A stretch of 64,000 nt of DNA, from the NCBI RefSeq assembly GCF_030013595.1, contig NZ_CP122768.1; one strand, 5' to 3'. Position numbers and translations under genes: made by a program. Position 1 is the first letter of the stretch. Every line of letters starts with the position of its first letter. A model generated the notes under the pieces. That model was not told the origin of the DNA. It saw nothing but the letters and a program-made list of their open reading frames with translations, and did not search any database. This DNA comes from Escherichia coli (lineage in GTDB: Bacteria; Pseudomonadota; Gammaproteobacteria; Enterobacterales; Enterobacteriaceae). Shown here in pieces: positions 9,158 through 56,781 of the stretch.

Positions 9158-9245
9158 GGAAGTGTGGCCGAGCGGTTGAAGGCACCGGTCTTGAAAACCG
9201 GCGACCCGAAAGGGTTCCAGAGTTCGAATCTCTGCGCTTCCGCCA
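9158..9245 (+). tRNA. serT: tRNA-Ser (anticodon UGA)
   Basis: 88-nt sequence GGAAGTGTGGCCGAGCGGTTGAAGGCACCGGTCTTGAAAACCGG...GAATCTCTGCGCTTCCGCCA with long variable arm and anticodon loop CTTGAAA; encoded CCA end. Confidence 0.92.
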
Positions 9246-9693: not shown

Positions 9694-10278
9694 TTACATT
9701 GTGTCTGGTTCTTCCGGCCACACAATATCCGGTGCTACTGATGTATCAACACGGTTCAGCAACACCCGATACTTTTTCCAGGCTTCCAGCAACGAGTTTT
9801 CTTCCTCCGTTGCGATCTCCAGATCTACAGCATCCTGAAGTGGCGCAATATGCTCACTGGCTACCTGCATCAGGCTGTTTTTTGTTTCTTCCGCCTCCCG
9901 GATCCGGAACAGTTTTTCTGCTTCTGCATCTTTCACCCAGGCTGTGCCGTTCCACTTCTGAAACTCCCCTTCCGGCGATAACCAGGTAACATTTTCCGGT
10001 AACGGACCGAGTTCAGAAATAAATAACGCGTCCCCTGACGCTACGTCATAAACCGTTTTACCCCGATGGTCTTCAACGAGATGCCACGATGTCTCATCAC
10101 TGTTGAAAACAGCCACGAAGCCTGCCGGAATATCTGGCGTTGCAATATCGGTACTGTTTGCTGGCAGACCTGTATGAGGTGGAATGTATGCATCACCTTC
10201 ACCAATAAATTCATTAGTTCCGGCCAGCAGATTATAAATTTTTATGGTCCGTGCTTGTTCACTCATTCTGAATGCCAT
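9694..10278 (-). CDS. tfa: tail fibre assembly protein Tfa
   Basis: 194-aa ORF, same length as lambda Tfa; overlaps stf stop. Confidence 0.9.
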
Positions 10279-32863: not shown

Positions 32864-32883
32864 AAAAAGGCCGCAGAGCGGCC
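32864..32883 (-). terminator. candidate rho-independent terminator for the int-cargo transcript
   Basis: Hairpin GGCCGC-AGA-GCGGCC (32869..32883) preceded on the plus strand by AAAAA, i.e. followed by a U-run on the minus strand; about 125 bp after the 146-aa ORF stop. Confidence 0.5.
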
Positions 32884-33008: not shown

Positions 33009-33446
33009 TTACTTAATAACAGTAACCACAGCCACAAGCACGGCCATCGCAGACAGGACAATACCTGTGAGTAACCAAGTCTGATTTGCAAATGATTTCT
33101 GAAGTTCAGTACGATGCTCAGCCATCTCAACTTTCAGAGACTGGCGTAAATCAGCCATCTCAGACTTCAGGGATTGGCGCGATTCTGCCATCTCAAGCCT
33201 CAACCCTTCGCGAATCTCCAGTACATCAGATTTGGTAGCAAAGGATTCGCTTCTTGTGGTGAGAGTAATCAGGTTGTTTTTGATTTCAGTCACATCACTT
33301 TCCAGGCAACTGACCCGCCGTTCAAGGTCGTCATTCATGCCATCACCTCCATCATTACCACTTCCTGTTACTTGGTTGTTGGATACATTATAGGCATTCT
33401 CTTTCTTTTTTCTGAACCGCGAAATATGTGCAACATTCTCTGCCAT
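33009..33446 (-). CDS. hypothetical coiled-coil protein with C-terminal transmembrane anchor
   Basis: ORF ...LEIREGLRLEMAESRQSLKSEMADLRQSLKVEMAEHRTELQKSFANQTWLLTGIVLSAMAVLVAVVTVIK; ATG shares one base with the upstream stop (TGATG); family not recognised. Confidence 0.55.
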   Translation of the reverse strand: MAENVAHISRFRKKKENAYNVSNNQVTGSGNDGGDGMNDDLERRVSCLESDVTEIKNNLITLTTRSESFATKSDVLEIREGLRLEMAESRQSLKSEMADLRQSLKVEMAEHRTELQKSFANQTWLLTGIVLSAMAVLVAVVTVIK

Positions 33447-33808
33447 CACTTCTCATCACCCTGCTTGCCTACCCAGTTCATAAAGGCCCGGGCCGAGTAA
33501 CGATGAACAAACCCACATCTGTTACAGGTAAGTCGGAATTCATAGTTATGGATATTTTCCCGATCATGTCCCTCATATCCCGGATACCCAGTAAATGGAC
33601 CGATGTAATCAAGCATAACAAAAGTGCCTAAATCACACTCCTCAGCAGTTTTCGGCTCAGGCCCCACCTCAACAATATTCGTCAAATACATGTACATATC
33701 CGTATCGCCACACGACAAACATTTTTCATTCGTAGACGACTCATTGAGAAAACGCGCAAAATTATCGAGCGTTGCCATTCTTTTAAGTTCATCTAAATGA
33801 AACTTCAC
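33446..33808 (-). CDS. hypothetical Cys-rich protein (two CxxC pairs), translationally coupled to int
   Basis: 120-aa ORF with CLSCGD and CNRCGF; GTG start 2 nt after the int stop, preceded by AGGAGG inside the int 3' end. Confidence 0.55.
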   Translation of the reverse strand: MKFHLDELKRMATLDNFARFLNESSTNEKCLSCGDTDMYMYLTNIVEVGPEPKTAEECDLGTFVMLDYIGPFTGYPGYEGHDRENIHNYEFRLTCNRCGFVHRYSARAFMNWVGKQGDEK

Positions 33809-33810
33809 TC

Positions 33811-34788
33811 TTAAGCACCTCCTAGTGGATTAAACCTCACCGCATCCTGCAGGTAATCCGGCGCAAGATGGGCATAAATCATCGTTGTCTGAATCTTTGC
33901 GTGCCCCAGAATTTTCTGGAGCGTCAGAATATTGCCGCCGTTCATCATGAAATGACTGGCGAAGGTATGGCGCAGCGCATGAACAGCCTGGCCGTCAGGA
34001 ACATCAGGTGCGACCGTTTTGATGACATCGCGAACCAATGGATAATCCAGCGTCGGAAACACCAGTTTCCCGCCCCGTATTTTGATCTTTTCAAACAGGC
34101 TTTCAGAAATAGGAACGGTACGGTTTTTGCTGTTCTTCGTTTTTGAAAAAGTGATTCGACAATGAAGAACACGGCGCTGCTCTAGTGCCGCTACCTCGCC
34201 CCATCGCGCCCCGGTCGACAGAAGGATTTCGACAGCCAGCCGTTCATCGGGATTTTCAGCCAGTGCATCCAGCAACTGAACACATTCAGACTTACTCAGA
34301 TATCCCATTTCGCGCTCGTTAACCTTCATTCCTTTAAGGCCTTGAACGGGGTTATCGTTAAGAAAATGGCCGGATGAGATGAGTGCGGTAAACATCGCGC
34401 TTAACGCCCCAATCTCTCGATTTATGGTGCTGGGCTGTATCCCCTGCTCTATCCTGGACACACGTAGCTCGGTGAGCATCGTTGTATTAAGTTTATGCAC
34501 GCACGGGTCATCCATTGCCTCACTCAAGCGCAGCAATTTAAGGCGCGTGTTATGCCCTGACTTCATTAGCTGGCCGTGGTATTTCCACCACAAGTCAATA
34601 AGCACTGACAGCGGGCGGCGATCAATGGAGTTTCCTTTCCACTCATTGTTATGCTGTTGCGCCAGCACCCACCGCTCATATAAAACTGCATCCGATTTCG
34701 TTTTAAATTTTTTGCGAATGCGTTTGCCTTTACGCCCCTCAGGACGCATGTCAAGAAGATACCCTCCCGGAATTGATTTTATGCTCAT
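33811..34788 (-). CDS. int: tyrosine integrase, P2 Int family
   Basis: Starts MSIKSIPGGYLLDMRPEGRKGKRIRKKFKTKSDAV (compare P2 Int MAIKKLDDGRYEVDIRPTGRNGKRIRRKF); catalytic ...HALRHTFASH... and ...TTMIYAHL... motifs. Confidence 0.9.
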   Translation of the reverse strand: MSIKSIPGGYLLDMRPEGRKGKRIRKKFKTKSDAVLYERWVLAQQHNNEWKGNSIDRRPLSVLIDLWWKYHGQLMKSGHNTRLKLLRLSEAMDDPCVHKLNTTMLTELRVSRIEQGIQPSTINREIGALSAMFTALISSGHFLNDNPVQGLKGMKVNEREMGYLSKSECVQLLDALAENPDERLAVEILLSTGARWGEVAALEQRRVLHCRITFSKTKNSKNRTVPISESLFEKIKIRGGKLVFPTLDYPLVRDVIKTVAPDVPDGQAVHALRHTFASHFMMNGGNILTLQKILGHAKIQTTMIYAHLAPDYLQDAVRFNPLGGA

Positions 34789-34837
34789 TCGTGAAGCCCC
34801 AGCGTTACAAGACCACCATGCCCCCAGCGTTCCATGA

Positions 34838-35149
34838 TTAGCCGGGCTGTGTGCCAGTCTTGCGGGATTTTTGAGAAGACGATGTGTTTTCTGGCCCATC
34901 AGGGGAGAGAGAAGGACTGATCTGCCCAGCAGCCTCATTTGTTTCGTTACTCATCAACCACGTAGTGTATTTTTTAAATTCCGGGTGCATTGTGATTTTC
35001 AGTAAAACCTCCGTTCCCACACCTCGAATACCAGTCTCGTATTGCTTAACCGTACCAACCGCAATACCTATTGAATCCGCGAACTTTGCCTGACTAAGCC
35101 CCTCAGATTCTCGAATTGCTTTTAGCTTCTTTGATATCTCTATTGACAT
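34838..35149 (-). CDS. C: immunity repressor C (P2 C family HTH)
   Basis: 103-aa ORF MSIEISKKLKAIRESEGLSQAKFADSIGIAVGTVKQYETG...HPEFKKYTTWLMSNE...GQISPSL, resembles P2 C; directly upstream of int on the same strand. Confidence 0.75.
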   Translation of the reverse strand: MSIEISKKLKAIRESEGLSQAKFADSIGIAVGTVKQYETGIRGVGTEVLLKITMHPEFKKYTTWLMSNETNEAAGQISPSLSPDGPENTSSSQKSRKTGTQPG

Positions 35150-37583: not shown

Positions 37584-40406
37584 ATGACGGCAAAGTACAT
37601 CAGGGACTGGCAACAACCGCGCCACGCAGTGGGGCGTGAAGGAACGGGGATCCCCGCTCCTGAATCCGCGCTTTCCTCCTGGCTGGATGCCTACCGGGCA
37701 GAGAACGAGCGCCGCCAGGAAATGGCTGATGCGGCGTTCTCCGCCACGCCGCTGGGCAACCTGATTAATAAAAGCCTGGACGCACAGGAAAAACAGGACA
37801 AAACCATCACACTGGCAGGAGACGCCAGAAAACAGGCACGCGGCGCGGTGGATGAAGCCATGGCCTCGCTGCGCCTGCTGCCGTCCTATCTGCGCGATCC
37901 GCTTATTCGCCACCTCTCCTTCCTGCGCAAAAAACAGGAAGCCGATCGTCAGAAAGGAAAAAACGCCAGGCAGGCAGAACGCTATGCGCGTGGGACCCTG
38001 CGCAAAATATTCGAACGTCTGGAGCGCACCGATCACCGCTGGCTGACACCGGGTTATCGCTCCCTTGCCGGACGCGAACGCCTGGACGATTTGCTTTACC
38101 TGCCGCAGCTCAACAAACACCAGATACAGACGCTGGCCACCATGACGGCGGCGATGTTCAGCAGCACCTTCGAAAAACTCTGCGATGGCTTTGGCGCGAC
38201 CGATGGCGAACTGACCATGGATGTAACGCTGAAGGCGTATCAGATGCTGGCCCGCATGGCGTTACACCTGCACATCATGCCTCCACATTATGACGCACTG
38301 ACAACAGACAAAGACCGGAGGAACGAACCGGACACGGAGCTGCTGCCGGGCGCAATCCTTCGCCTGACCTGTGCGGAATGGTGGAAACGCAAACTGTGGC
38401 TGTTACGTTGCGAGTGGCGGGAAGAACAACTCCGCGCCGCCTGTCTGGTTTCCAGAAAAACATCACCCTATCTGAGCCAGGACGCGTTAAGCGAGTTTCG
38501 CGCACACCGCGAGAAAACACGCGATTTCCTGAAAAGTTTCATGCTGGAAAATGAAGACGGGTTCACGATTGATCTCGAGACGGTGTATTACGCGGGAGTA
38601 AGTAACCCGGTTCACCGTAAGGCAGAAATGATGGCCACCATGAAGGGGCTGGAACTTCTGGCCGAAGCCCGTGGCGACAGAGCGGTGTTTCTGACTGTCA
38701 CCTGCCCGTCAAAATACCACGCAACAACGGAGAACGGTCATCCGAATCCCAAATGGAACGGGGCCACCATGCGCGACTCCAGCGATTACCTGGTTAACAC
38801 GTTTTTTGCGACGGTCCGCAAAAAACTGAACCGCGACGGTCTTCGCTGGTATGGCATCCGCACGGTGGAGCCTCACCATGACGGCACTGTGCACTGGCAT
38901 ATGATGGTCTTTGCACATCCGGACGAGATTGAAACCATCGTGTCCCACGTCTGCGATATTGCCATTCAGGAAGACCGCCACGAGCTGGGCGATGATATTA
39001 CTCCGCGTTTTAAAGCGGAGTACGTCGACGGCTCAAAAGGCACGCCAACCAGCTACATCGCCACCTACATCGGAAAGAACCTGGACAGCCGCGCCGTGGA
39101 TGGCATCGCCCCGAAAACGGGCAAGCCACGCGTTGACCACGAAACCGGAAAATCAATGGCCGAGAGCGTGGAGCGCGCCATCGGCTGGGCGCGCCTTCAC
39201 CGGGTCCGCCAGTTCCAGTTCTTTGGCATCCCCTCCCGTCAGGTGTGGCGTGAACTGCGCCGCCTTGCCAGCCAGATGGCACGCAACCCGGAAGGCCCGC
39301 AACGGCTGAAGGATGACGCAATGGATGCAGTGCTCGCTGCCGCTGATGCCGGGTGTTTTGCCTCCTACATTGAAAAACAGGGCGGCGTACTTGTTCCACG
39401 CCAGGACTACCTGATTCGCACCGCCTACGACCTCGCAGATGAGCTGAACGATTACGGCGAACAGAGCGTACAGATTTACGGGATCTGGTCACCACTCATC
39501 GGGGAGTCTTCCCGTGTGTGCACACATCCGGATAACTGGAAGCTGGTAAGACGTAAACCGGAAGCGGAAGACAGCGCCCGCGAAAATGGTTTTGACCTTC
39601 AGGGCGGCCCTGCCGCCCCTTGGACTCGTGGCAATAACTGTCCCCGTGTACAGGAAACGGACAACAACGGGACAGAACAGCCGGAAGAACGGCCAGCACC
39701 GTGGCCGCAGCTCCCTGACGGCGTTGAAGTGAACGAATGGATGCGCTCACTGAAACGGCACGAACGCCGGGCGCTGATGCGTTCGCTTCGTGACAAACAG
39801 GCAAAAAACAGCAGTGATGAAATGCAGAGCTGGACACAGAGCCGCAAACAGCAGCGGCCTTTGCCTGATAACCACGAATTACTCGCTAAAGAATGGCGGG
39901 AGTCTGCTGAATCTCTCGGCCTGCATATCGGTGAACAACAGATGCAGCACCTGTTACGGGGCGGCAGTCTGTACGTTGACGGCAGCATCATTGCACCGCA
40001 GGGATTTGAAATTGTACGCAAACCGGATACCCGCCCGGACAGCCGAATCACGCAGCTCTGGCAGCGCCTGAGCCGTAATCATGGCGTAAGCAGCACGGAG
40101 ATCCGCCATAACCCGGTCGCCAGCTATCTGGCACAGCTGGGGGCATCAGACCCTGAAGCCGCCGCACGCCTGGCATCCACACTTCAGCAGGACCAGAACA
40201 CCATGAAAACACCCGTTACCGTGCTTTCTGACATGCTGCGCGCCATCCGCGACGCAGAGCACGCACAGAGAATCAGTGAAACCACTGAACGCGCCAGCCG
40301 CAAAGCAGACCTGCTGCGGGGTGGCCTGACCAGTGGAAACAAAAAACAGACAGAAACGGGACTCACGAATCCCGCAAATGAGCAAAAAACGCGCAGCGAT
40401 ATATGA
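37584..40406 (+). CDS. A: replication initiation endonuclease, P2 gpA family (rolling-circle, HUH motif)
   Basis: 940-aa ORF with ...WYGIRTVEPHHDGTVHWHMMVF... HxH motif and ...YIATYIGKN... active-site Tyr region typical of P2/186 A proteins. Confidence 0.9.
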   Translation: MTAKYIRDWQQPRHAVGREGTGIPAPESALSSWLDAYRAENERRQEMADAAFSATPLGNLINKSLDAQEKQDKTITLAGDARKQARGAVDEAMASLRLLPSYLRDPLIRHLSFLRKKQEADRQKGKNARQAERYARGTLRKIFERLERTDHRWLTPGYRSLAGRERLDDLLYLPQLNKHQIQTLATMTAAMFSSTFEKLCDGFGATDGELTMDVTLKAYQMLARMALHLHIMPPHYDALTTDKDRRNEPDTELLPGAILRLTCAEWWKRKLWLLRCEWREEQLRAACLVSRKTSPYLSQDALSEFRAHREKTRDFLKSFMLENEDGFTIDLETVYYAGVSNPVHRKAEMMATMKGLELLAEARGDRAVFLTVTCPSKYHATTENGHPNPKWNGATMRDSSDYLVNTFFATVRKKLNRDGLRWYGIRTVEPHHDGTVHWHMMVFAHPDEIETIVSHVCDIAIQEDRHELGDDITPRFKAEYVDGSKGTPTSYIATYIGKNLDSRAVDGIAPKTGKPRVDHETGKSMAESVERAIGWARLHRVRQFQFFGIPSRQVWRELRRLASQMARNPEGPQRLKDDAMDAVLAAADAGCFASYIEKQGGVLVPRQDYLIRTAYDLADELNDYGEQSVQIYGIWSPLIGESSRVCTHPDNWKLVRRKPEAEDSARENGFDLQGGPAAPWTRGNNCPRVQETDNNGTEQPEERPAPWPQLPDGVEVNEWMRSLKRHERRALMRSLRDKQAKNSSDEMQSWTQSRKQQRPLPDNHELLAKEWRESAESLGLHIGEQQMQHLLRGGSLYVDGSIIAPQGFEIVRKPDTRPDSRITQLWQRLSRNHGVSSTEIRHNPVASYLAQLGASDPEAAARLASTLQQDQNTMKTPVTVLSDMLRAIRDAEHAQRISETTERASRKADLLRGGLTSGNKKQTETGLTNPANEQKTRSDI

Positions 40407-40451
40407 AGCGCGCACAAAACAGGCAAAAACGGGATTTCAGAATCCCGTAAA
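40354..40451. repeat. two 25-bp dyad-containing direct repeats straddling the A stop codon, upstream of the parM-like gene
   Basis: AAACGGGACTCACGAATCCCGCAAA (40354..40378) and AAACGGGATTTCAGAATCCCGTAAA (40427..40451); each contains CGGGA-N8-TCCCG; 73-bp centre-to-centre. Confidence 0.6.
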
Positions 40452-40482
40452 CGATTAATTAATCAACATAAGGAAAAGCGAC

Positions 40483-41442
40483 ATGAAAATTTGTATCGAC
40501 GACGGCTCCACCAACATCAAGCTGGCATGGACTGAGAACGGCGAACGCCGCAACGCCATCAGCCCGAACAGCTTCAAGTCGGAATGGTCTGCGCCGTTCG
40601 GCGGCACGCAGCCCGCGAACTACATGCTTGATGGCGTGCGCTATGGTTTTGATCCGGTCAGCGATCGCTTTGTCCAGACGACCGACACGCAATACCAGTA
40701 CAGCGATGTAAATGTCATTGCCATTCATCACGCGCTGGTCAAATCAGGCATCACGCCACAGGAGGTGGATGTGGTTGTCACCCTGCCACTGAGCGAGTAT
40801 TTCGACACAAACGCACAGCCGGACATGGCCAACATCAACCGCAAAAAAGCGAACGTTATGCGCCCGGTGGAGTACCAGAACGGCGAAGCATTCACTATCC
40901 GTAACGTGCGGGTTATGCCTGAATCCATTCCGGCTGGCTTTAAAGCACTGGCTGACATGAGTCCGTTTGAATCCCTGCTGATTGTGGATTTAGGTGGAAC
41001 CACGCTGGATGTGGCAAAGGTTCAGGGACAACTGGCAGGTATCAGCCAGGTGTTTTGCGATCCACACGTAGGCGTTTCCCTGATGGCCGATGCAGTACTG
41101 TCGGTGATGGCCACTAACGGTATGCGTACCAGTCACCACATCGCCAATACCATTATCGAACATCGCCATGATGAAGCCTGGCTGCGCCAGCACATCCACA
41201 ATGACGCGCATTACGCCAGCCTGATGGCGGTTATTCGTGAAAAGGAAGAAACACTGAAACAACGCGTGATCCGCGCGCTGGCGGGTTTTTCGGGTTACGG
41301 GCGGGTGATGGTTGTCGGTGGCGGGGCGGAGATTGTGGCACCCGCTATCCGCGAAGCCTGCGGAGTTAATGCGACTTTCATCGCGGACGGGGTGCCACAG
41401 TTTGCTCTGGTTAATGGGCTGTACGCAATGGACAAGGAGTAA
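40483..41442 (+). CDS. parM: ParM/StbA-family actin-like ATPase
   Basis: 319-aa ORF MKICIDDGSTNIKLAW...NSFKSEW...YSDVNVIAIHHAL...VMPESIPAG...IVDLGGTTLD...VVGGGAE...LVNG, alignable throughout with R1/R100 ParM/StbA. Confidence 0.85.
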   Translation: MKICIDDGSTNIKLAWTENGERRNAISPNSFKSEWSAPFGGTQPANYMLDGVRYGFDPVSDRFVQTTDTQYQYSDVNVIAIHHALVKSGITPQEVDVVVTLPLSEYFDTNAQPDMANINRKKANVMRPVEYQNGEAFTIRNVRVMPESIPAGFKALADMSPFESLLIVDLGGTTLDVAKVQGQLAGISQVFCDPHVGVSLMADAVLSVMATNGMRTSHHIANTIIEHRHDEAWLRQHIHNDAHYASLMAVIREKEETLKQRVIRALAGFSGYGRVMVVGGGAEIVAPAIREACGVNATFIADGVPQFALVNGLYAMDKE

Positions 41443-41446
41443 ACCA

Positions 41447-41758
41447 ATGACGACACCAACCAGACGGATAAGTTTCTATCTGAAGCCCGCCGCCGTCAAG
41501 AACGAAGGCGAAGCATGCGCCTGGCTGGACAGCCTTACACCAGAAGCCCGCAAAAGCGGCCAACGTGTGGCTTTTCTGGCCGGGCTGGCACTTCTGAAAA
41601 TGAATCCGGCAGAGGCTTACCGACTGGCTGCATGGGCTGACGATGAGGCGTTATCAGTGACACAAACCAGGACAGAACGCCCCGCGTCACAGCCAGTACC
41701 AACCACACAGATAACCAGTCGGATGGCCGGAAATATCAGGGCGTTATTTCCCGAATAA
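41447..41758 (+). CDS. parR: ParR/StbB-like adaptor protein (putative ribbon-helix-helix)
   Basis: 103-aa ORF MTTPTRRISFYLKPAAVKNEGEACAWLDSLTPEARKSGQRVAFLAGLALL...; AAGGAG 7 nt upstream, 4 bp after parM stop; N-terminal pattern resembles R1 ParR. Confidence 0.65.
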   Translation: MTTPTRRISFYLKPAAVKNEGEACAWLDSLTPEARKSGQRVAFLAGLALLKMNPAEAYRLAAWADDEALSVTQTRTERPASQPVPTTQITSRMAGNIRALFPE

Positions 41759-41786
41759 CACAACATCAGGGCGCATCCGCCCTGAT
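41735..41786. repeat. ATCAGGGCG direct repeat plus a 9-bp-stem hairpin at the parR 3' end
   Basis: ATCAGGGCG at 41735..41743 and 41765..41773; inverted copy CGCCCTGAT at 41778..41786 forms a hairpin with a CATC loop. Confidence 0.55.
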
Positions 41787-41821
41787 GACTTTAATCCGGG
41801 AACATAAACAAGGGGGACACA

Positions 41822-42154
41822 ATGCAACACATTGACAGAGAAAAAGCGCAGCGACTGATTGAGCGGATGGAAGCGCTGGCGAAAGAAGAAAATGTCAACA
41901 TCCAAAAAATAGCTGAATGTGGCCAGATAGTTCTTCGTCGTGAAAAAGACCTCAAACAACTGATGTCTGGCGAAACCAGCAAAACATGGACTTCAGGCGA
42001 GGAGACGATTTATTGCAGCTTCTGCAATAAATCTCAGTACGAAGTCACAAAGGTGATTGCCGGACCGTCTGTTTACATCTGCAATGAGTGCGTGGATTTG
42101 TGCAATGAAATTATCAGGAGAGAAGTGACAGACAAAAAGGGAAAAAACGCATGA
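41822..42154 (+). CDS. ClpX N-terminal zinc-binding-domain homolog with N-terminal coiled-coil extension
   Basis: 110-aa ORF; C-terminal ...[40 protein letters not shown] is near-identical in pattern to the E. coli ClpX Cys4 zinc-binding domain ([40 protein letters not shown]); AGGGGG RBS. Confidence 0.8.
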
Positions 42155-42980: not shown

Positions 42981-44027
42981 TCAGGATGTGGGCTGGGTAT
43001 CTAACAGTGCGTAAGGGTTAAAGCGGATCACCTCTTCGCCAAGCCAGTCATTGATGTGCTTCATGGCCTCCATGACGGGCATCAGCTCGTTAATTGCGTA
43101 AACCCGCGCGGCCTTCTCCACATCACCAAACGCACTTTTTTCACCCGGCATCGCTCCCATCAGTTGCGGCGGAACGCGGTGCGCAGCCAGCACATCATCA
43201 CGGGATGCCGCCTTAACATTCATGAACTCATCCTTTGCGGTGATCTGCTGGAACGGCAAAATTTGCACACCTTCTTTGCCCCCGTTGGGCGCATGAATGA
43301 GCACGTTTTTAAATGCACCACCACCACGCGCACCCTGTAACGTTTCTTTCAGGGAGTCCATGCTTTCGCGGTTTACCTGCGCTGCACCGATGTAGATGAT
43401 GCACCCGGCGTGGGATCCGTTGTCGTAATACAGTTTTCTGAACATGTCCGCCGAATGAGACAGGCTGGCCGAGAGTAATGCGCCAAGATATTCCGGCATG
43501 CCGTAAATTTCCTGGTTAATGTCAGGATTCATCAGGTGACACACTTTGCCTGGGCGAAACTGAAACGCATCCTTGCCATCCTGCACATACCACCATGATT
43601 CAAGATCGCTTCCGCGTCGCATGTATTTCGCCAGGGCGTGCCGTAATTTAAGCGGTTCGCCGAGCATATTGCTTCGAAGCTCAAGGAATGCGTTACCGAA
43701 CACAAACCAGTCCAGCGCCAGCGCCGAGAAATCCTGCCGGGAAAGCAGCGGGTGCGGAATATAGCAGCCGAGCAATACATTGCGCTTAAAGTAAAGCGCA
43801 GACTGATGCCAGGACGTTTGCCGGGCAGCTCTTGCCAGACCGTACCAGTCTACCGGGGTTTCATACCACCGCCCGTTATCAGCACAGTACATATTGTCCA
43901 GCAGGTCATGCCCGGTCAGGCGATAAGGACCATCAAATGTGAATGCACTGAGCGATGATTCTTTCCTGAGCGCATCAGCGAGATCAATGCGTGAACTCAT
44001 GCGCACTTTTTTATTTTTTCTGCTCAT
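42981..44027 (-). CDS. Q: portal protein, P2 gpQ family
   Basis: 348-aa ORF, size and sequence pattern of P2 Q; leftward, upstream of terminase P. Confidence 0.9.
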   Translation of the reverse strand: MSRKNKKVRMSSRIDLADALRKESSLSAFTFDGPYRLTGHDLLDNMYCADNGRWYETPVDWYGLARAARQTSWHQSALYFKRNVLLGCYIPHPLLSRQDFSALALDWFVFGNAFLELRSNMLGEPLKLRHALAKYMRRGSDLESWWYVQDGKDAFQFRPGKVCHLMNPDINQEIYGMPEYLGALLSASLSHSADMFRKLYYDNGSHAGCIIYIGAAQVNRESMDSLKETLQGARGGGAFKNVLIHAPNGGKEGVQILPFQQITAKDEFMNVKAASRDDVLAAHRVPPQLMGAMPGEKSAFGDVEKAARVYAINELMPVMEAMKHINDWLGEEVIRFNPYALLDTQPTS

Positions 44028-45778
44028 CAGAACTCCATAACCGTGAAACGCTCGTTTTCTCCTTCGCCGCCAATTGGTTCGTTAATGACAGCAAGCATGG
44101 TTGCCCACGCAAGGTCGCCGTGGCTGATCCCCCTCGCGCGGTCCGTTTCGTAAGTGATAAAGCCGCCCGGTGTTTTCACCTTACGCACGGCGTTAAAGGC
44201 CGCGACCAGCTCGCGTTCGGCGCGATCGTATTCCCACCGTCCGGCACGCATTATTTGCAGCATTTTCAGTACCAGCGACCGTTTGGATGACAGCGTGAAG
44301 GTGTACGGAATAGCAGCAGGGAAAAACCGCTTCACTATCTGATAAACAGCCTCCCCGTTCCCGCCCGTCACATCAATGCCGATGTGTTCCACGTTGTAGC
44401 GACACGTGAACTCTTCAATGACTCTGGCCTGTTCTTCAAACTCCAGCCCCTGAACGCGTCGCGTCTCCACCGTTCGAAAACGGCCACCAGGAACAGCCGG
44501 AGGAACCACCACGGACACAGCGCCGCTGTCGCCGTTGCCACTGCTGCCGTTTGCGTCATACCCAATCCATACCGGACGATTCCCCATCGGGCGGGGAGCA
44601 AAAGGTTTCCAGTCTTTCCAGTCGTCGTATCCGTCAACACCGCAGCCAATCAGGATATTCAGGTTAAATGCCGATTCCCCTTCGCGAACAAACTCACACA
44701 TATAGAGATTGAGGAACTCGTCTTCGGTGTTTTCATCACGGATTTCGTCAATATCGGTGTGTTTCCAGCCGTGATTAACCACATCTTCCAGCGTGACAAT
44801 TTGCCGCCACGTCCGGTCAGGGCAGATAAGCCCGTTATGCAGCGTTTTCCAGTCCACAGAAAAACGCTGGCGTTTATGCGCGGCCTTTTTCTCGTTCCAG
44901 CGGTCGCCGTTCCAGTAGACGTATGCCTCGTGCGTTTCGGTTGATGGCGTGGAGAAGTAGGTGCGCCGCAGTCCGCTGAGGGTTGCCATAGCGCCAGCCA
45001 CCTTGCGCAGTTCAGCAAAGCGACTGACCCAGAAAAATTCATCAAAATAAAAATTGCCTGTGTAGGACTGTGCCGTCGCAGCAGAAGTACCGAGAAAATG
45101 CAGTTCTGCGCCGTTGGAGAGGATGATTTTATCGCCCCCTTTCAGCTCCACATCAACTTCAGCCGCGGCCTTCTGAATAATGCTTTTAAACTGGAACGCC
45201 TGACGACGCGACGCAGACAAAAAAATCTGGTTACGCTGGTAAGGTTGTGCCACATCGTCACGCAGCGCCATCAGCAGTGCTTCCTGTGCAAAATACCAGG
45301 TCGCCCCAATCTGTCGGGATTTCAGGATCATCCTGTTACGTATCCCGGCTTCACTGCAAAGGGTCAGGGAGTCAAACCAGCCCCGCTGATGCCACTCCAG
45401 CCTGCTGATGATTTTTTCCCGCAGTGCGGCAATCTGCTCCGGCGTGAAATGATTTTTAAGTTTTTTCGCCCGGCCTTTCTTTCCTGTGGCCGTCGCATCC
45501 GGCTGGCCATCATGCAGTTTTTTAAGCTGCCGGGTCAGCAGGTCTATTTCCTTAAAGTCACCACCTGTTTTATTCTGTTTTTCAGTAAGCTGGATGAGGC
45601 GCGCATCGATGGACTGCGTGACACGCTGCACGGGTGGCGTTTCATCCCACTGGTCGCGTTTTTTCCACGCATAAATCGTGTTCGGGTTTATTCCCATCAG
45701 ACGTGATATTTCTGCGGGCGGATAACCCTGCCAGTAAAGTTGCCGCGCACGCTGGCGCACAAAAGCGTCCTGAATCAT
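44027..45778 (-). CDS. P: terminase large (ATPase) subunit, P2 gpP family
   Basis: 583-aa ORF with ...LKSRQIGATWYFAQEAL... Walker A-like and nuclease-domain acidic residues. Confidence 0.92.
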   Translation of the reverse strand: MIQDAFVRQRARQLYWQGYPPAEISRLMGINPNTIYAWKKRDQWDETPPVQRVTQSIDARLIQLTEKQNKTGGDFKEIDLLTRQLKKLHDGQPDATATGKKGRAKKLKNHFTPEQIAALREKIISRLEWHQRGWFDSLTLCSEAGIRNRMILKSRQIGATWYFAQEALLMALRDDVAQPYQRNQIFLSASRRQAFQFKSIIQKAAAEVDVELKGGDKIILSNGAELHFLGTSAATAQSYTGNFYFDEFFWVSRFAELRKVAGAMATLSGLRRTYFSTPSTETHEAYVYWNGDRWNEKKAAHKRQRFSVDWKTLHNGLICPDRTWRQIVTLEDVVNHGWKHTDIDEIRDENTEDEFLNLYMCEFVREGESAFNLNILIGCGVDGYDDWKDWKPFAPRPMGNRPVWIGYDANGSSGNGDSGAVSVVVPPAVPGGRFRTVETRRVQGLEFEEQARVIEEFTCRYNVEHIGIDVTGGNGEAVYQIVKRFFPAAIPYTFTLSSKRSLVLKMLQIMRAGRWEYDRAERELVAAFNAVRKVKTPGGFITYETDRARGISHGDLAWATMLAVINEPIGGEGENERFTVMEF

Positions 45779-51839: not shown

Positions 51840-52417
51840 GCGCAGAACTCATGCGACTGCTGAGCAATATCATCCGCACCGGGATCATCTCTGAAGTTGA
51901 TGAGAAGTCCTGGCGCGTGCGCGTTCGCAGCGGCGAACTGGAAACAGGCTGGTTGCGCTGGAACACCACGCGCGCGGGAGCCTTCAATGTATGGCTGCCG
52001 CCATCACCAGGCGAACAGGTGGTAATTGCCTGCATTGGCGGCAACCCGGAAACCGCCATGATAATTGGCAGCCTGTGGAGTGATGCCAGTCCGGCCCCCG
52101 GCAAAAGCCTGAAAGAAATCGTGGTCAGCGCGCCGGATGGCGCGGCGTTCCGCTACGACGCAGACGCTGGCGCACTGAGCGCCAGCGGCATGAAAACAGC
52201 CACCCTGCAGGCATCCGTCAGCGTGACACTGGATACGCCCGTCGTGGAATGCACAAACCTTCTGAGAACAGCGACGCTTGACGTCACAAAAGGGGGAAAG
52301 ATGAGCGGCAATATCACGCACAGCGGCGGCGATTTCACCTCAAACGGCATCACAGTGCATACGCATAAGCACGGTGGCGTTAAAGGTGGCAGCGATTCGA
52401 CAGGAGGCCCGCAGTGA
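51836..52417 (+). CDS. V: baseplate spike protein, P2 gpV family
   Basis: 193-aa ORF with OB-fold-like N-terminus and Gly-rich C-terminal tip region. Confidence 0.88.
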   Translation: MSAELMRLLSNIIRTGIISEVDEKSWRVRVRSGELETGWLRWNTTRAGAFNVWLPPSPGEQVVIACIGGNPETAMIIGSLWSDASPAPGKSLKEIVVSAPDGAAFRYDADAGALSASGMKTATLQASVSVTLDTPVVECTNLLRTATLDVTKGGKMSGNITHSGGDFTSNGITVHTHKHGGVKGGSDSTGGPQ

Positions 52418-54189: not shown

Positions 54190-56781
54190 ATGAGTACCAC
54201 AACACGAAAATTTAAAACCATTATCACTGATACTGGTGCCAAAAAATTAGCTCAGGCAGCCGCGCCAGATGGTAATCCTGTCCGCCTGACTCACATGGCC
54301 GTGGGCGACGGTGGCGGCACGTTGCCCACACCAGACAGTAAGCAGACCCGTCTGGTGCATGAGGTGTGGCGACATACTGTTAATCGCGTCATCCTGGACG
54401 CAACACATCAGAACCGCATTATTGCGGAGCTGGTTATTCCTCCTGAAACGGGCGGATTCTGGATCCGGGAAATTGGTGTATTTGATGAGCACGGCGATTT
54501 GATCGCGGTGGGCAATACTGCGGAAAGTTACAAGCCAGCCGTTGCCGAAGGATCCGGACGTGTACAAACATTTCGCACCATTCTGACCGTATCCAGCACT
54601 GCCACCGTGGCGCTTACCGTGGATAACACCATGGTTATGGCCACAGTGGATTACGTGAATGACAAACTGAAAGAACATGAACAGTCACGACGTCACCCGG
54701 ACGCCTCGCTGACCGCAAAAGGCTTTGTTCAACTCAGTAGCGCCACCAACAGCACGTCTGAAACACTGGCCGCAACGCCGAAAGCGGTAAAGGCCGCGTA
54801 TGACCTTGCTAACGGGAAATATACCGCACAGGACGCCACCATAGCGCGAAAAGGCCTTGTCCAGCTCAGTAGTGCCACCAACAGCACGTCTGAAACGCTC
54901 GCCGCAACGCCGAAAGCGGTAAAGGCAGCATATGACCTTGCTAACGGGAAATACACTGCACAGGACGCCACCACAACGCGAAAAGGCCTTGTTCAGCTCA
55001 GTAGCGCCACCAACAGTGATTCTGAAACGCTTGCGGCAACGCCAAAGGCGGTAAAGGCAGCATATGACCTTGCTAACGGGAAATACACTGCACAGGACGC
55101 CACCACAGCGCGAAAAGGTCTTGTCCAGCTCAGTAGCGCCACCAACAGCACGTCTGAAGCATTGGCCGCAACACCGAAAGCGGTAAAGGCCGCGTATGAC
55201 CTTGCTAACGGGAAATACACTGCACAGGACGCCACCACAGCGCGAAAAGGTCTTGTCCAGCTCAGTAGCGTCACCAACAGCGATTCTGAAACGCTTGCGG
55301 CAACGCCAAAGGCGGTAAAGGCCGCGTATAACCTTGCTAACGGGAAATACACTGCACAGGATGCCACTACAGCGCGAAAAGGTCTTGTCCAGCTCAGTAG
55401 CGTCACCAACAGTGATTCTGAAACGCTGGCCGCAACATCAAAAGCGGTGAAGTCTGCCTATGACAATGCTGAAAAACGCCTTCAGAAAGATCAGAACGGT
55501 GCGGATATTCCGGGAAAGGATACCTTCACGAAAAATATCGGTGCCTGTCGTGCTTATAGCGGCGCTTTGAGCACTGAAGCCGGAAACTGGACAACCGCTC
55601 AGTTTATTGAATGGCTGGATTCCCGTGGTGCATTTAATCATCCGTACTGGATGTGCAAAGGCTCATGGTCATATGCAAATAACAAAATCATTACGGATAC
55701 CGGATGTGGTGATATCCACCTGGCTGGTTGTGTCGTCGAGGTCATGGGAACTAAATCTGCAATCACTATCCGAGTAACCACGCCGACAACATCAAGTGGT
55801 GGCGGTACAACCAGCGCACAATTCACTTACATTAATCATGGGGGCGGCTACTTCCCCGGCTGGCGTCGTGACTGGAATCGTCAGGGCGACTCAATGACCG
55901 GAACGATTAATCAGGATGGCGGAAGCCAGAATGCCTATATGTCTACGGCCTTATGTTCAGGCACCAGAGGCGGCAAAAAATATCTCAGAAAGTTTCGTGG
56001 TGGAGAAGGAGATACTATCTGGCATGAAACAGTACAGGGCGGGGTAATTCGCTGGGCGACAGGAAACTATGACGCTCAGGAAGAATTATCACTCAGCTCC
56101 GCTTATGGTCTCCGTTCAAGAGGTGAGATTACATCACTCAGTGCTAATGGTCTGCGCATTGCTTATGGCAATTATGGATTCTTTATCAGGAATGATGGCG
56201 GCAGCACATATTTAATGCTGACGGCCTCTGGCGATAAATTTGGGACATGGAACGGCTTAAGACCGCTGACTATCAATAACGCCAATGGCGGAGTGTCAAT
56301 GGGGCATGGCCTGAGTGTTACAGGTGATATTGTCTCAAGTACCAAAGTACGTGCCGGTAGCGGGAAAAAGTTCACGGTCAGCAGCAGCAATACATCCACG
56401 AAGGAAGCCGCATTCAATTTGTGGGGAAACGCAAGTCGTCCGGTGGTGGCTGAATTAGGTGATGATGCAGGCTGGCATTTTTACAGTCAGAGAAATACAG
56501 ATAACAGCATCACTTTTGCTGTTAACGGGCAGGTATCACCATCTAACTATGGCAACTTTGATTCACGCTATGTCCGGGATATTAGACTTGGTGGCGCGTC
56601 ATCCTATAAACCAGCAAATAACGGGACAACATGGACGCATCAGGCTCCATCTGGTTGCGCATATACCGGGATTATCGTTCAGGATACAGGCTCAAACTCT
56701 GCCGATAATATTGGTGGTGTTTATTACAGACCAATTCAAAAAAATATTAATGGTACATGGTATAACGTATCGAGTGTTTGA
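54190..56781 (+). CDS. H: tail fibre protein, P2 gpH-like, with internal tandem repeats
   Basis: 863-aa ORF; N-terminal 170 aa like P2 H; five and a half tandem copies of a 44-aa unit; Gly-rich distal domain. Confidence 0.9.
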   Translation: MSTTTRKFKTIITDTGAKKLAQAAAPDGNPVRLTHMAVGDGGGTLPTPDSKQTRLVHEVWRHTVNRVILDATHQNRIIAELVIPPETGGFWIREIGVFDEHGDLIAVGNTAESYKPAVAEGSGRVQTFRTILTVSSTATVALTVDNTMVMATVDYVNDKLKEHEQSRRHPDASLTAKGFVQLSSATNSTSETLAATPKAVKAAYDLANGKYTAQDATIARKGLVQLSSATNSTSETLAATPKAVKAAYDLANGKYTAQDATTTRKGLVQLSSATNSDSETLAATPKAVKAAYDLANGKYTAQDATTARKGLVQLSSATNSTSEALAATPKAVKAAYDLANGKYTAQDATTARKGLVQLSSVTNSDSETLAATPKAVKAAYNLANGKYTAQDATTARKGLVQLSSVTNSDSETLAATSKAVKSAYDNAEKRLQKDQNGADIPGKDTFTKNIGACRAYSGALSTEAGNWTTAQFIEWLDSRGAFNHPYWMCKGSWSYANNKIITDTGCGDIHLAGCVVEVMGTKSAITIRVTTPTTSSGGGTTSAQFTYINHGGGYFPGWRRDWNRQGDSMTGTINQDGGSQNAYMSTALCSGTRGGKKYLRKFRGGEGDTIWHETVQGGVIRWATGNYDAQEELSLSSAYGLRSRGEITSLSANGLRIAYGNYGFFIRNDGGSTYLMLTASGDKFGTWNGLRPLTINNANGGVSMGHGLSVTGDIVSSTKVRAGSGKKFTVSSSNTSTKEAAFNLWGNASRPVVAELGDDAGWHFYSQRNTDNSITFAVNGQVSPSNYGNFDSRYVRDIRLGGASSYKPANNGTTWTHQAPSGCAYTGIIVQDTGSNSADNIGGVYYRPIQKNINGTWYNVSSV
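54718..55455 (+). repeat. tandem array of a 132-bp (44-codon) unit inside tail fibre gene H
   Basis: Protein repeats KGLVQLSSATNSTSETLAATPKAVKAAYDLANGKYTAQDATTAR x5 plus a diverged partial sixth; nucleotide copies over 90 percent identical. Confidence 0.85.

Follow-up and report, generated by a model that had tools for sequence, protein, structure and literature searches.

A ParMRC-like cassette directly behind the replication gene of P2-like prophages of Escherichia coli, and its possible role in positioning replicating phage DNA

Plasmid R1 carries a parC site made of ten 11-bp direct repeats, and the ParMRC systems of R1 and R100 are among the closest described counterparts of the locus analyzed here, a parM-parR cassette (parMR) at positions 40483-41758 of a 64,000-nt stretch of Escherichia coli DNA from contig NZ_CP122768.1 (the whole stretch is hereafter called the window). 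Plasmid-type partition genes are also found in phage genomes, namely in KS14 (ParA with RepB), in P1 and P7 (ParAB) and in D6, whose StbA-type ParM is 48% identical to the ParM of the window. Unlike these phages, which have a plasmid lifestyle with a plasmid replicon, the P88 group to which the present cassette belongs integrates, and gpA is its only annotated initiator. KS14, a P2-like phage of Burkholderia, is a true plasmid prophage with RepB and ParA and no integrase (PMC3091744). Corynebacterium glutamicum has an integrated prophage, CGP3, whose excised circle replicates efficiently only with the early-induced AlpC and its adaptor AlpA, a protein that binds to upstream sites (PMC4446434). 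Likened by description, AlpAC and parMR both place an actin-like ATPase and an adaptor in an integrated prophage, AlpA having its sites upstream of the operon, and both the gene content of parMR and its position after an early operon fit this type. The two come from hosts of different phyla and from different types of phage, AlpC belongs to the distant actin-like proteins and is not an R1-type ParM, and the function of AlpAC has been demonstrated, whereas we infer that of parMR.

The cassette itself is already known. Over positions 40300-41800 the window is 100% identical to Escherichia phage P88 (NC_026014; Peduoviridae, Xuanwuvirus), whose gp17 and gp18 are annotated as 'plasmid segregation protein ParM' and 'partition protein' and have the same neighbors, making them the same entity as the cassette of the window. 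About a quarter of E. coli P2-like phages have been described as having a putative plasmid partitioning system, perhaps allowing persistence as plasmids (Rousset et al. 2022, PMC9122126), which is the same hypothesis in print, and the phiSM paper lists a parM gene as 'fitness' cargo (PMC6456863). The P88 paper is silent on parMR (PMC5285337), our literature search found no functional work on the cassette, and papers on the proteome and transcriptome of O157:H7 (CP-933T) contained nothing specific to parM expression. A nucleotide-level search with the 1.5-kb cassette found it in 1303 of 5426 complete E. coli genomes (24%). With this frequency, the P88 annotation, the statement by Rousset et al. 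and the existence of KS14, the view taken in a preliminary description of this DNA, that active partition is unexpected in the P2 family, was overstated. What we add is that the cassette is strictly linked to one gpA lineage and conserved across genera, that its cis site consists of two palindromes, that no promoter of its own is recognizable and that its location is almost exclusively chromosomal. On our reading, which we regard as evenly balanced between right and wrong, parMR would be a functional type II (ParMRC-like) machine that acts on the excised or infecting, replicating phage circle, and not a device for the upkeep of a plasmid prophage. Its support consists of homology, intactness, selection, synteny, conserved upstream sites and chromosomal location.

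The parM gene (40483-41442, + strand), identified by homology, Pfam domains and an intact open reading frame (ORF), encodes an actin-like segregation ATPase of 319 aa. Residues 2-316 match R1 ParM (PDB 1mwk; E=9e-93, phmmer against PDB sequences), the Pfam domains StbA_N (E=2.5e-82) and ParM C-terminal domain (E=2e-68) are both matched end to end, and the protein is 47% identical to R100 ParM over 318 aa (BLASTP). The motifs DDGSTNIKL, MPESIPAG, DLGGTTLD and VVGGGAE line up with their R1 counterparts, and the phosphate-1, connect, phosphate-2 and adenosine motifs of the actin-fold ATPases of type II partition systems are all present. The preliminary description, which had proposed an alignment to R1/R100 ParM/StbA along the whole length and had named the first, third and fourth of these motifs, was right on both points. 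It had also specified that homologs found only as decayed pseudogenes would speak against function, and this is not what we see: the parM ORF is unbroken in 11 of the 11 loci sampled, with ratios of non-synonymous to synonymous substitution rates (dN/dS) of 0-0.16. The comparison with the circular record NZ_CP148288.1 (see below) gave 12 synonymous and no non-synonymous differences, and that with E. albertii gave 25 and 1. parM is under strong purifying selection.

These data bear on the possibility that a plasmid cassette was captured once and has since been carried as an inert relic. Truncated or fused ParM fragments do occur in some genomes and the copy in phage 503458 is broken, as a relic would have it, though such copies are also what is expected of decaying prophages. 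The low dN/dS, ORFs that are unbroken at each of the 11 loci sampled and also in five genera (54-63% identity), a ParM that is more conserved than the structural proteins and a conserved upstream region together make an inert relic scarcely credible. parMR is real and, as far as can be judged from sequence, almost certainly functional.

The parR gene (41447-41758, + strand) follows parM after a gap of 4 nt and encodes a 103-aa adaptor. The ORF finder reported a 148-aa ORF here (41312-41758, from an upstream TTG), which is really the 103-aa gene starting at ATG 41447, as in the P88 annotation. In accordance with the small basic adaptor that had been proposed downstream of parM, the protein matches Pfam Plasmid_stab_B (ParR/StbB; PF10784, E=2e-24), matches phrog_2515 'partition protein' over residues 1-103 of 103 and has a net charge of ∼+3 (counted from sequence). 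It is 34% identical to R100 ParR over the N-terminal 56 aa, and a multiple alignment sets its N-terminal RRISFYLKP against RRTIAFKLNP of R100 and its C-terminal KNIxxLFPE against the C-terminal tail of R100 ParR; R6, F10, L12, P14 and N96 are invariant in this alignment, and F101 nearly so. At the level of sequence, ParR has the predicted DNA-binding N-terminal part and ParM-binding C-terminal tail of a small adaptor. A phage ParR without the ParM-binding tail was considered and rejected, since the LFPE motif falls on the C-terminal tail of R100 ParR. A PDB search with ParR gave no significant match.

ParR occurs as at least three mosaic alleles, seen on comparing the window with four other loci (L005, L015, L016 and L018): the P88 type is 103 aa long, the ST131, O157 and E. 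albertii types are 104 aa long, and strain 95NR1 carries an intermediate form. parR is intact in all three mosaic alleles sampled. The alleles share their first ∼15-17 residues (the first 15 being MTTPTRRISFYLKPA in all but one sampled locus) and their last ∼8, and their middle is strongly divergent, at loci whose ParM is still >97% identical; this points to recombination breakpoints inside parR.

Upstream of parM, a repeat search found two 42-nt direct repeats (40340-40381 and 40413-40454) that are 79% identical, each with a CGGGA-N8-TCCCG palindrome (CGGGACTCACGAATCCCG at 40357-40374 and CGGGATTTCAGAATCCCG at 40430-40447), and both are candidate parC or operator sites. These are the only perfect copies of CGGGA-N8-TCCCG in the 64-kb window. 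The palindromes are spaced 73 bp apart, or ∼7 helical turns, with the first repeat lying within the final codons (the last ∼50 nt) of the replication gene A and the second in the 76-bp gap between A and parM. Across 10 related loci the palindrome arms are invariant except for a single substitution, TCCCG to TCCTG, in two loci, and variation otherwise falls in the centers; the whole parM leader is more conserved than the synonymous sites of parM. Because the ParR N-termini and the palindrome arms are almost unchanged between alleles, DNA specificity is seemingly constant. The leader proper (40455-40482, + strand), in which TTAATTAATCAAC is followed by the ribosome-binding site AAGGA (40470-40474), is nearly invariant in the same 10 loci, and a ATTAATCAA...AAGG motif precedes parM in two further loci (L008 and L009) too. 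Plesiomonas has an analogous GGG...CCC pair 72 bp apart, Hafnia one 73 bp apart (counted by eye), and Serratia and Enterobacter have an inverted GGGAAC...GTTCCC pair.

The preliminary description had likened the order of upstream repeats, ATPase and adaptor to parC-parM-parR, and the locus indeed consists of two 42-nt repeats, then parM, then parR. It resembles R1/R100 ParMRC in this order of cis sites, parM and parR, in a ParM that is homologous over its full length, in a ParR of the same Pfam family with the same N- and C-terminal motifs, and in a similar ribosome-binding context (CATAAGGA). Unlike the plasmid systems, the phage cassette lies directly after the replication nuclease gene of an integrating P2-like phage, its ParMs form a clade of their own, and its ParR has 103 aa instead of 116, with part of the linker missing. 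The cis sites differ as well: instead of ∼10 direct 11-bp iterons around a promoter, which in R100 have an ACCC core and surround a promoter-like site, the candidate centromere of the phage consists of two palindromes 73 bp apart, that is, four half-sites, and no promoter of its own is recognizable.

The palindromes could instead be an RNA or transcriptional element, either a structure between the A and parM cistrons or minus-strand terminators against antisense transcription, with the ParR site elsewhere or lost. Both palindromes are indeed flagged as terminator-like on the minus strand, with a hairpin and a T-run, RNA folds of the 143-nt region are more stable than those of shuffled controls for either strand (z=-4.1 and -4.4), and the TCCCG to TCCTG change in the arm would keep a G-U pair on the + strand. 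Strong folding is, however, automatic for two copies of one palindrome, and the stretch from the portal gene to parM already has stronger terminator-like hairpins on the minus strand (42651-42633 and 41787-41764). The Plesiomonas sites are 26-nt direct repeats in which the non-palindromic interior is conserved and the arms pair over only 3-4 bp, which fits protein sites better than hairpins, and where the sites diverge in sequence together with ParR they are still 72-73 bp apart. An Rfam search upstream of parM found no known RNA, and the location 5' of parM matches that of R100 parC. We therefore think an RNA element unlikely as the explanation of these repeats.

A consensus scan upstream of parM found no sigma-70-type site, and the best score from a simple weight matrix was 4.2, below the median of 5.9 for 200-nt tiles of the window, compared with 8.7 for the parM region of R100. 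By this crude test, the cassette lacks a promoter of its own that is embedded in parC and repressed by ParR. No + strand terminator was found by a terminator scan of the 76-bp gap between A and parM. The short gap, the missing terminator and the missing sigma-70-like promoter suggest that parMR is expressed by read-through from the early operon. In P2 and 186 the early operon is kept silent by repression during lysogeny and becomes active upon infection or induction.

The gene directly 5' of parM, gene A (37584-40406, + strand), ends the early operon and encodes a gpA-type rolling-circle replication endonuclease of 940 aa (phrog_91, 'nicking at origin of replication', E=1.7e-273) that is 99% identical to P88 gpA. 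Among 50,697 phage records, parMR is found in 14 of the 14 with a P88-type gpA (at least 85% identity) and in none of the 368 other gpA-bearing records, in which gpA identity is below 43%, and at every locus with a P88-type gpA, parM comes directly after A. Similarity between relatives continues through parR and breaks at its terminator, not after A, and the later cargo is lineage-specific in all loci examined. This terminator is a G+C-rich stem-loop with a 10-bp stem (41764-41787; terminator scan and folding; -18.4 kcal/mol, z=-4.7) that closes the parMR unit; many matches end at 41758-41784, and variable hotspot cargo comes next. The P88-type gpA also has a C-terminal extension of ∼145 aa (residues ∼797-940) that is specific to this type, tblastn alignments of other P2-like gpA proteins ending at residue 796, and the last codons of the extension overlap the first candidate ParR site.

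Besides E. coli, the cassette is present in E. albertii, in Citrobacter (including phage phiSM) and in a SopE-carrying Salmonella prophage. A contig search with one cassette protein returned three near-identical loci and nothing more diverse; loci in other genera were found through protein searches followed by contig look-ups. The order A-parM-parR-cargo-portal recurs in P2-like prophages of Plesiomonas (ParM identity 63%), Hafnia (62%), Serratia (58%) and Enterobacter ludwigii (54%), with one or two small genes between A and parM in Hafnia and E. ludwigii. Between genera, ParM is better conserved than gpA (29-55%), portal (30-47%), terminase (36-43%) and capsid (27-41%). In a neighbor-joining tree, the phage-borne ParMs form a single clade, whose neighbor clades come from plasmid-like contexts, an integrative and conjugative element and an integrated plasmid. 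The P2-like prophage of O157:H7 strain Rafaela_II is degraded: within NZ_CP076230.1, 2251166-2259367, an IS3 remnant follows parR, no portal-to-lysis genes are present and a frameshift disrupts the tape measure gene, yet the gpA, parM and parR ORFs are intact.

The interval between gpA and gpQ, where P2 carries tin and old, has been described as an anti-phage hotspot (PMC9122126), and parMR occupies this same position. As hotspot cargo, ParR and ParM made by the prophage would act in exclusion or incompatibility, interfering with incoming related phages or with plasmids that have similar centromeres, and the existence of at least three mosaic ParR alleles is reminiscent of specificity variation. 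The first 15 residues of ParR and the palindrome arms are nearly constant, however, and no promoter is evident for expression in a lysogen. Unlike tin and old, the pair is constant in its gpA lineage and always first after A, as in 14 of 14 records with a P88-type gpA, the variable genes coming only past parR. parMR show neither variable presence in close relatives nor likeness to defense proteins, and PADLOC found no family for ParM, ParR or three neighbors, so the exclusion role that had been raised in the preliminary description finds no support and appears improbable to us. Judging by its synteny, parMR is in effect a constant element of the replication module and does not behave like cargo of the hotspot.

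A further possibility is a facultative plasmid prophage, in which parMR keeps P88-like phages as low-copy circles, for instance in cells whose attachment site is already taken or in which integration fails. The cassette is a bona fide plasmid-type partition system, the possibility has been published (PMC9122126), and a P2-like plasmid prophage does exist in KS14 (PMC3091744). In the complete E. coli genomes, however, 1449 of the 1451 places of the cassette are chromosomal and two are on plasmids. In PLSDB (72,556 plasmid records), seven records match at ≥95% identity, of which four were inspected and the three largest (0.4-1.4 Mb) left out. One of these four, NZ_CP148288.1, is a 34,461-bp circle from a cat E. 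coli isolate that was deposited as a plasmid and holds a whole P88-like genome with integrase; it is the only phage-sized circle with the cassette among the plasmid records. The other three are two IS26-bounded prophage fragments in large plasmids and one linear contig. In the 34.4-kb circle the portal, sheath, tape measure and D genes are interrupted by indels of 1-2 nt, of which several fall in homopolymers; because homopolymer indels typify long-read errors, the broken structural genes are not to be trusted and the assembly is probably error-prone. The circle could be an episome or, equally, an induced, replicating phage genome.

The P2 gpA gene belongs to an operon that is shut off by repressor in lysogens, and the P88 annotation has no replication initiator besides the gpA rolling-circle nuclease. 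KS14 has RepB and ParA and no integrase; here, the window and all related loci with a visible flank have a tyrosine integrase gene, and the copy in the window is itself integrated. We found neither extrachromosomal upkeep, nor a plasmid-type initiator usable under repression, nor an integrase that is absent or dispensable, which would mark a phage-plasmid. The chromosomal location of 1449 of 1451 copies, the lack of an initiator besides gpA and the presence of an integrase indicate that stable plasmid lysogeny is not the normal state, and an episome of a P88-like phage would be transient or rare. A stable plasmid lifestyle was rejected, the plasmid database and the complete genomes having yielded one phage-sized circle, in an indel-bearing assembly. 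The extrachromosomal phage-plasmid phase that the preliminary description had suggested is in this sense disfavored as a stable state, and we consider the facultative plasmid prophage unlikely, though still the alternative to be taken most seriously.

Filament-driven positioning of replicating phage DNA, a putative role analogous to that of AlpAC, fits better than a phage-plasmid phase. The linkage to gpA, the conservation across genera, the reduced two-palindrome site, the lack of a recognizable own promoter and the chromosomal location together make positioning of the replicating circle a likelier role than plasmid maintenance. Upon infection or induction (mitomycin C induces P88; PMC5285337), the early operon (cox...B...A) would be transcribed, and parM and parR with it by read-through from A. 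ParR dimers would then bind the two CGGGA-N8-TCCCG palindromes that straddle the end of A and the parM leader, and their C-terminal tails would capture ATP-ParM filaments, and these would push apart the circles that gpA generates by rolling-circle replication and move them across the cell. The outcome could be efficient replication or packaging, copies in both daughter cells before integration, or both, such that the cassette would serve a phage that otherwise integrates during those phases in which it replicates outside the chromosome. That parMR is, more specifically, a core and lineage-defining part of the replication module in a large group of P2-like phages, whose actin-like filaments position or disperse rolling-circle genomes from a minimal two-palindrome centromere at induction, on infection or ahead of integration, is a proposal that we put forward tentatively, at somewhat short of an even chance.

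Several points weigh against a machine that acts on the replicating circle. We infer ParR binding, filament formation, the timing of expression and the benefit to the phage from sequence. With four half-sites, the candidate parC may be an operator only, or too small for a segrosome. The missing promoter rests on a crude weight-matrix scan, and the Hafnia and E. ludwigii relatives do have promoter-like sites before parM. Since most P2-like phages do without a par system, whatever benefit it brings is not essential. The intact parMR of the degraded O157:H7 prophage, which no longer has its head genes, might point to an advantage for the host or in the lysogenic state.

If parMR does act on the replicating circle, cytoskeletal positioning of DNA would be routine in a very common family of E. 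coli prophages, and an AlpAC-like strategy, found in about a quarter of strains, would be at hand in a tractable E. coli phage. P88 or phiSM, mitomycin-inducible in E. coli or Citrobacter, would make easy models, and the two-palindrome site would be an unusually small type II centromere. If episomal persistence were true instead, the boundary between integrating phages and phage-plasmids would be less sharp in these abundant prophages.

The surroundings of the cassette bear out the integrase-bearing P2-like prophage of the preliminary description, with a tyrosine integrase gene at 33811-34938 (- strand; phrog_1, E=7.5e-72), gene A, and portal and terminase genes at 42981-45778. Starting ahead of gene A and continuing through the genes for head, lysis and tail, the backbone is 98-99% identical to that of P88. 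Unlike P88, the window prophage has another integrase/C/cox module and sits in a lambdoid prophage. The left 6 kb of the window are core E. coli chromosome (hya/app), followed by a tRNA-Ser (9158-9245), then by the tail-to-terminase part of the lambdoid prophage and, from ∼32864, by the P2-like element. Overlapping BLAST matches place the left prophage junction at 32864-32883, where the lambdoid prophage and the P2-like element have the 20-bp core AAAAAGGCCGCAGAGCGGCC in common; since the two sequences overlap in this core, the copy in the window is integrated. The same core also flanks this type of integrase at its usual site next to btuC, as in E. coli SE11, where the same integrase adjoins btuC. 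The left junction of the window is absent from the 5426 complete E. coli genomes, and NZ_CM149870.1 matches the first 6 kb of the window at 100% and lacks the P2-like prophage. The P2-like prophage lies inside the lambdoid one (∼9.7-32.9 kb), just beyond its small-terminase gene, and the core is a 20-bp hairpin. From its sequence, the insertion looks like a secondary-site integration that split the lambdoid prophage.

Between the prophage end and the integrase gene, two small genes (33009-33808, - strand; phrog_9415 and phrog_4293), which form the same pair in SE11, may be cargo expressed in lysogeny. The first cargo gene after parR (41822-42154, + strand; phrog_6797) encodes a 110-aa product with, in its C-terminal half, the zinc-binding domain of the ClpX N-terminus on its own (Pfam zf-C4_ClpX, E=8.9e-18); NCBIfam ClpX models are matched as well, over their N-terminal ∼50 residues. 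The product could be a decoy or adaptor for host ClpX; its P88 counterpart is oddly labeled 'carboxylate--amine ligase'. In the tail fiber gene (54190-56781), one segment of P88 matches at 54717, 54849, 54981, 55113 and 55245 (to 55470), which indicates, from these matches, a tandem array of ∼132-bp (44-aa) repeats longer than that of P88. The tRNA-Leu(CAG) called by ARAGORN in the baseplate region (52123-52212, - strand) is probably a false positive, the Rfam tRNA model scoring below threshold there. Finally, the Rfam family IS009 matches with 223 bits at 9737-9935 (- strand), in the tail-fiber-assembly gene at the end of the lambdoid prophage, next to the tRNA-Ser.

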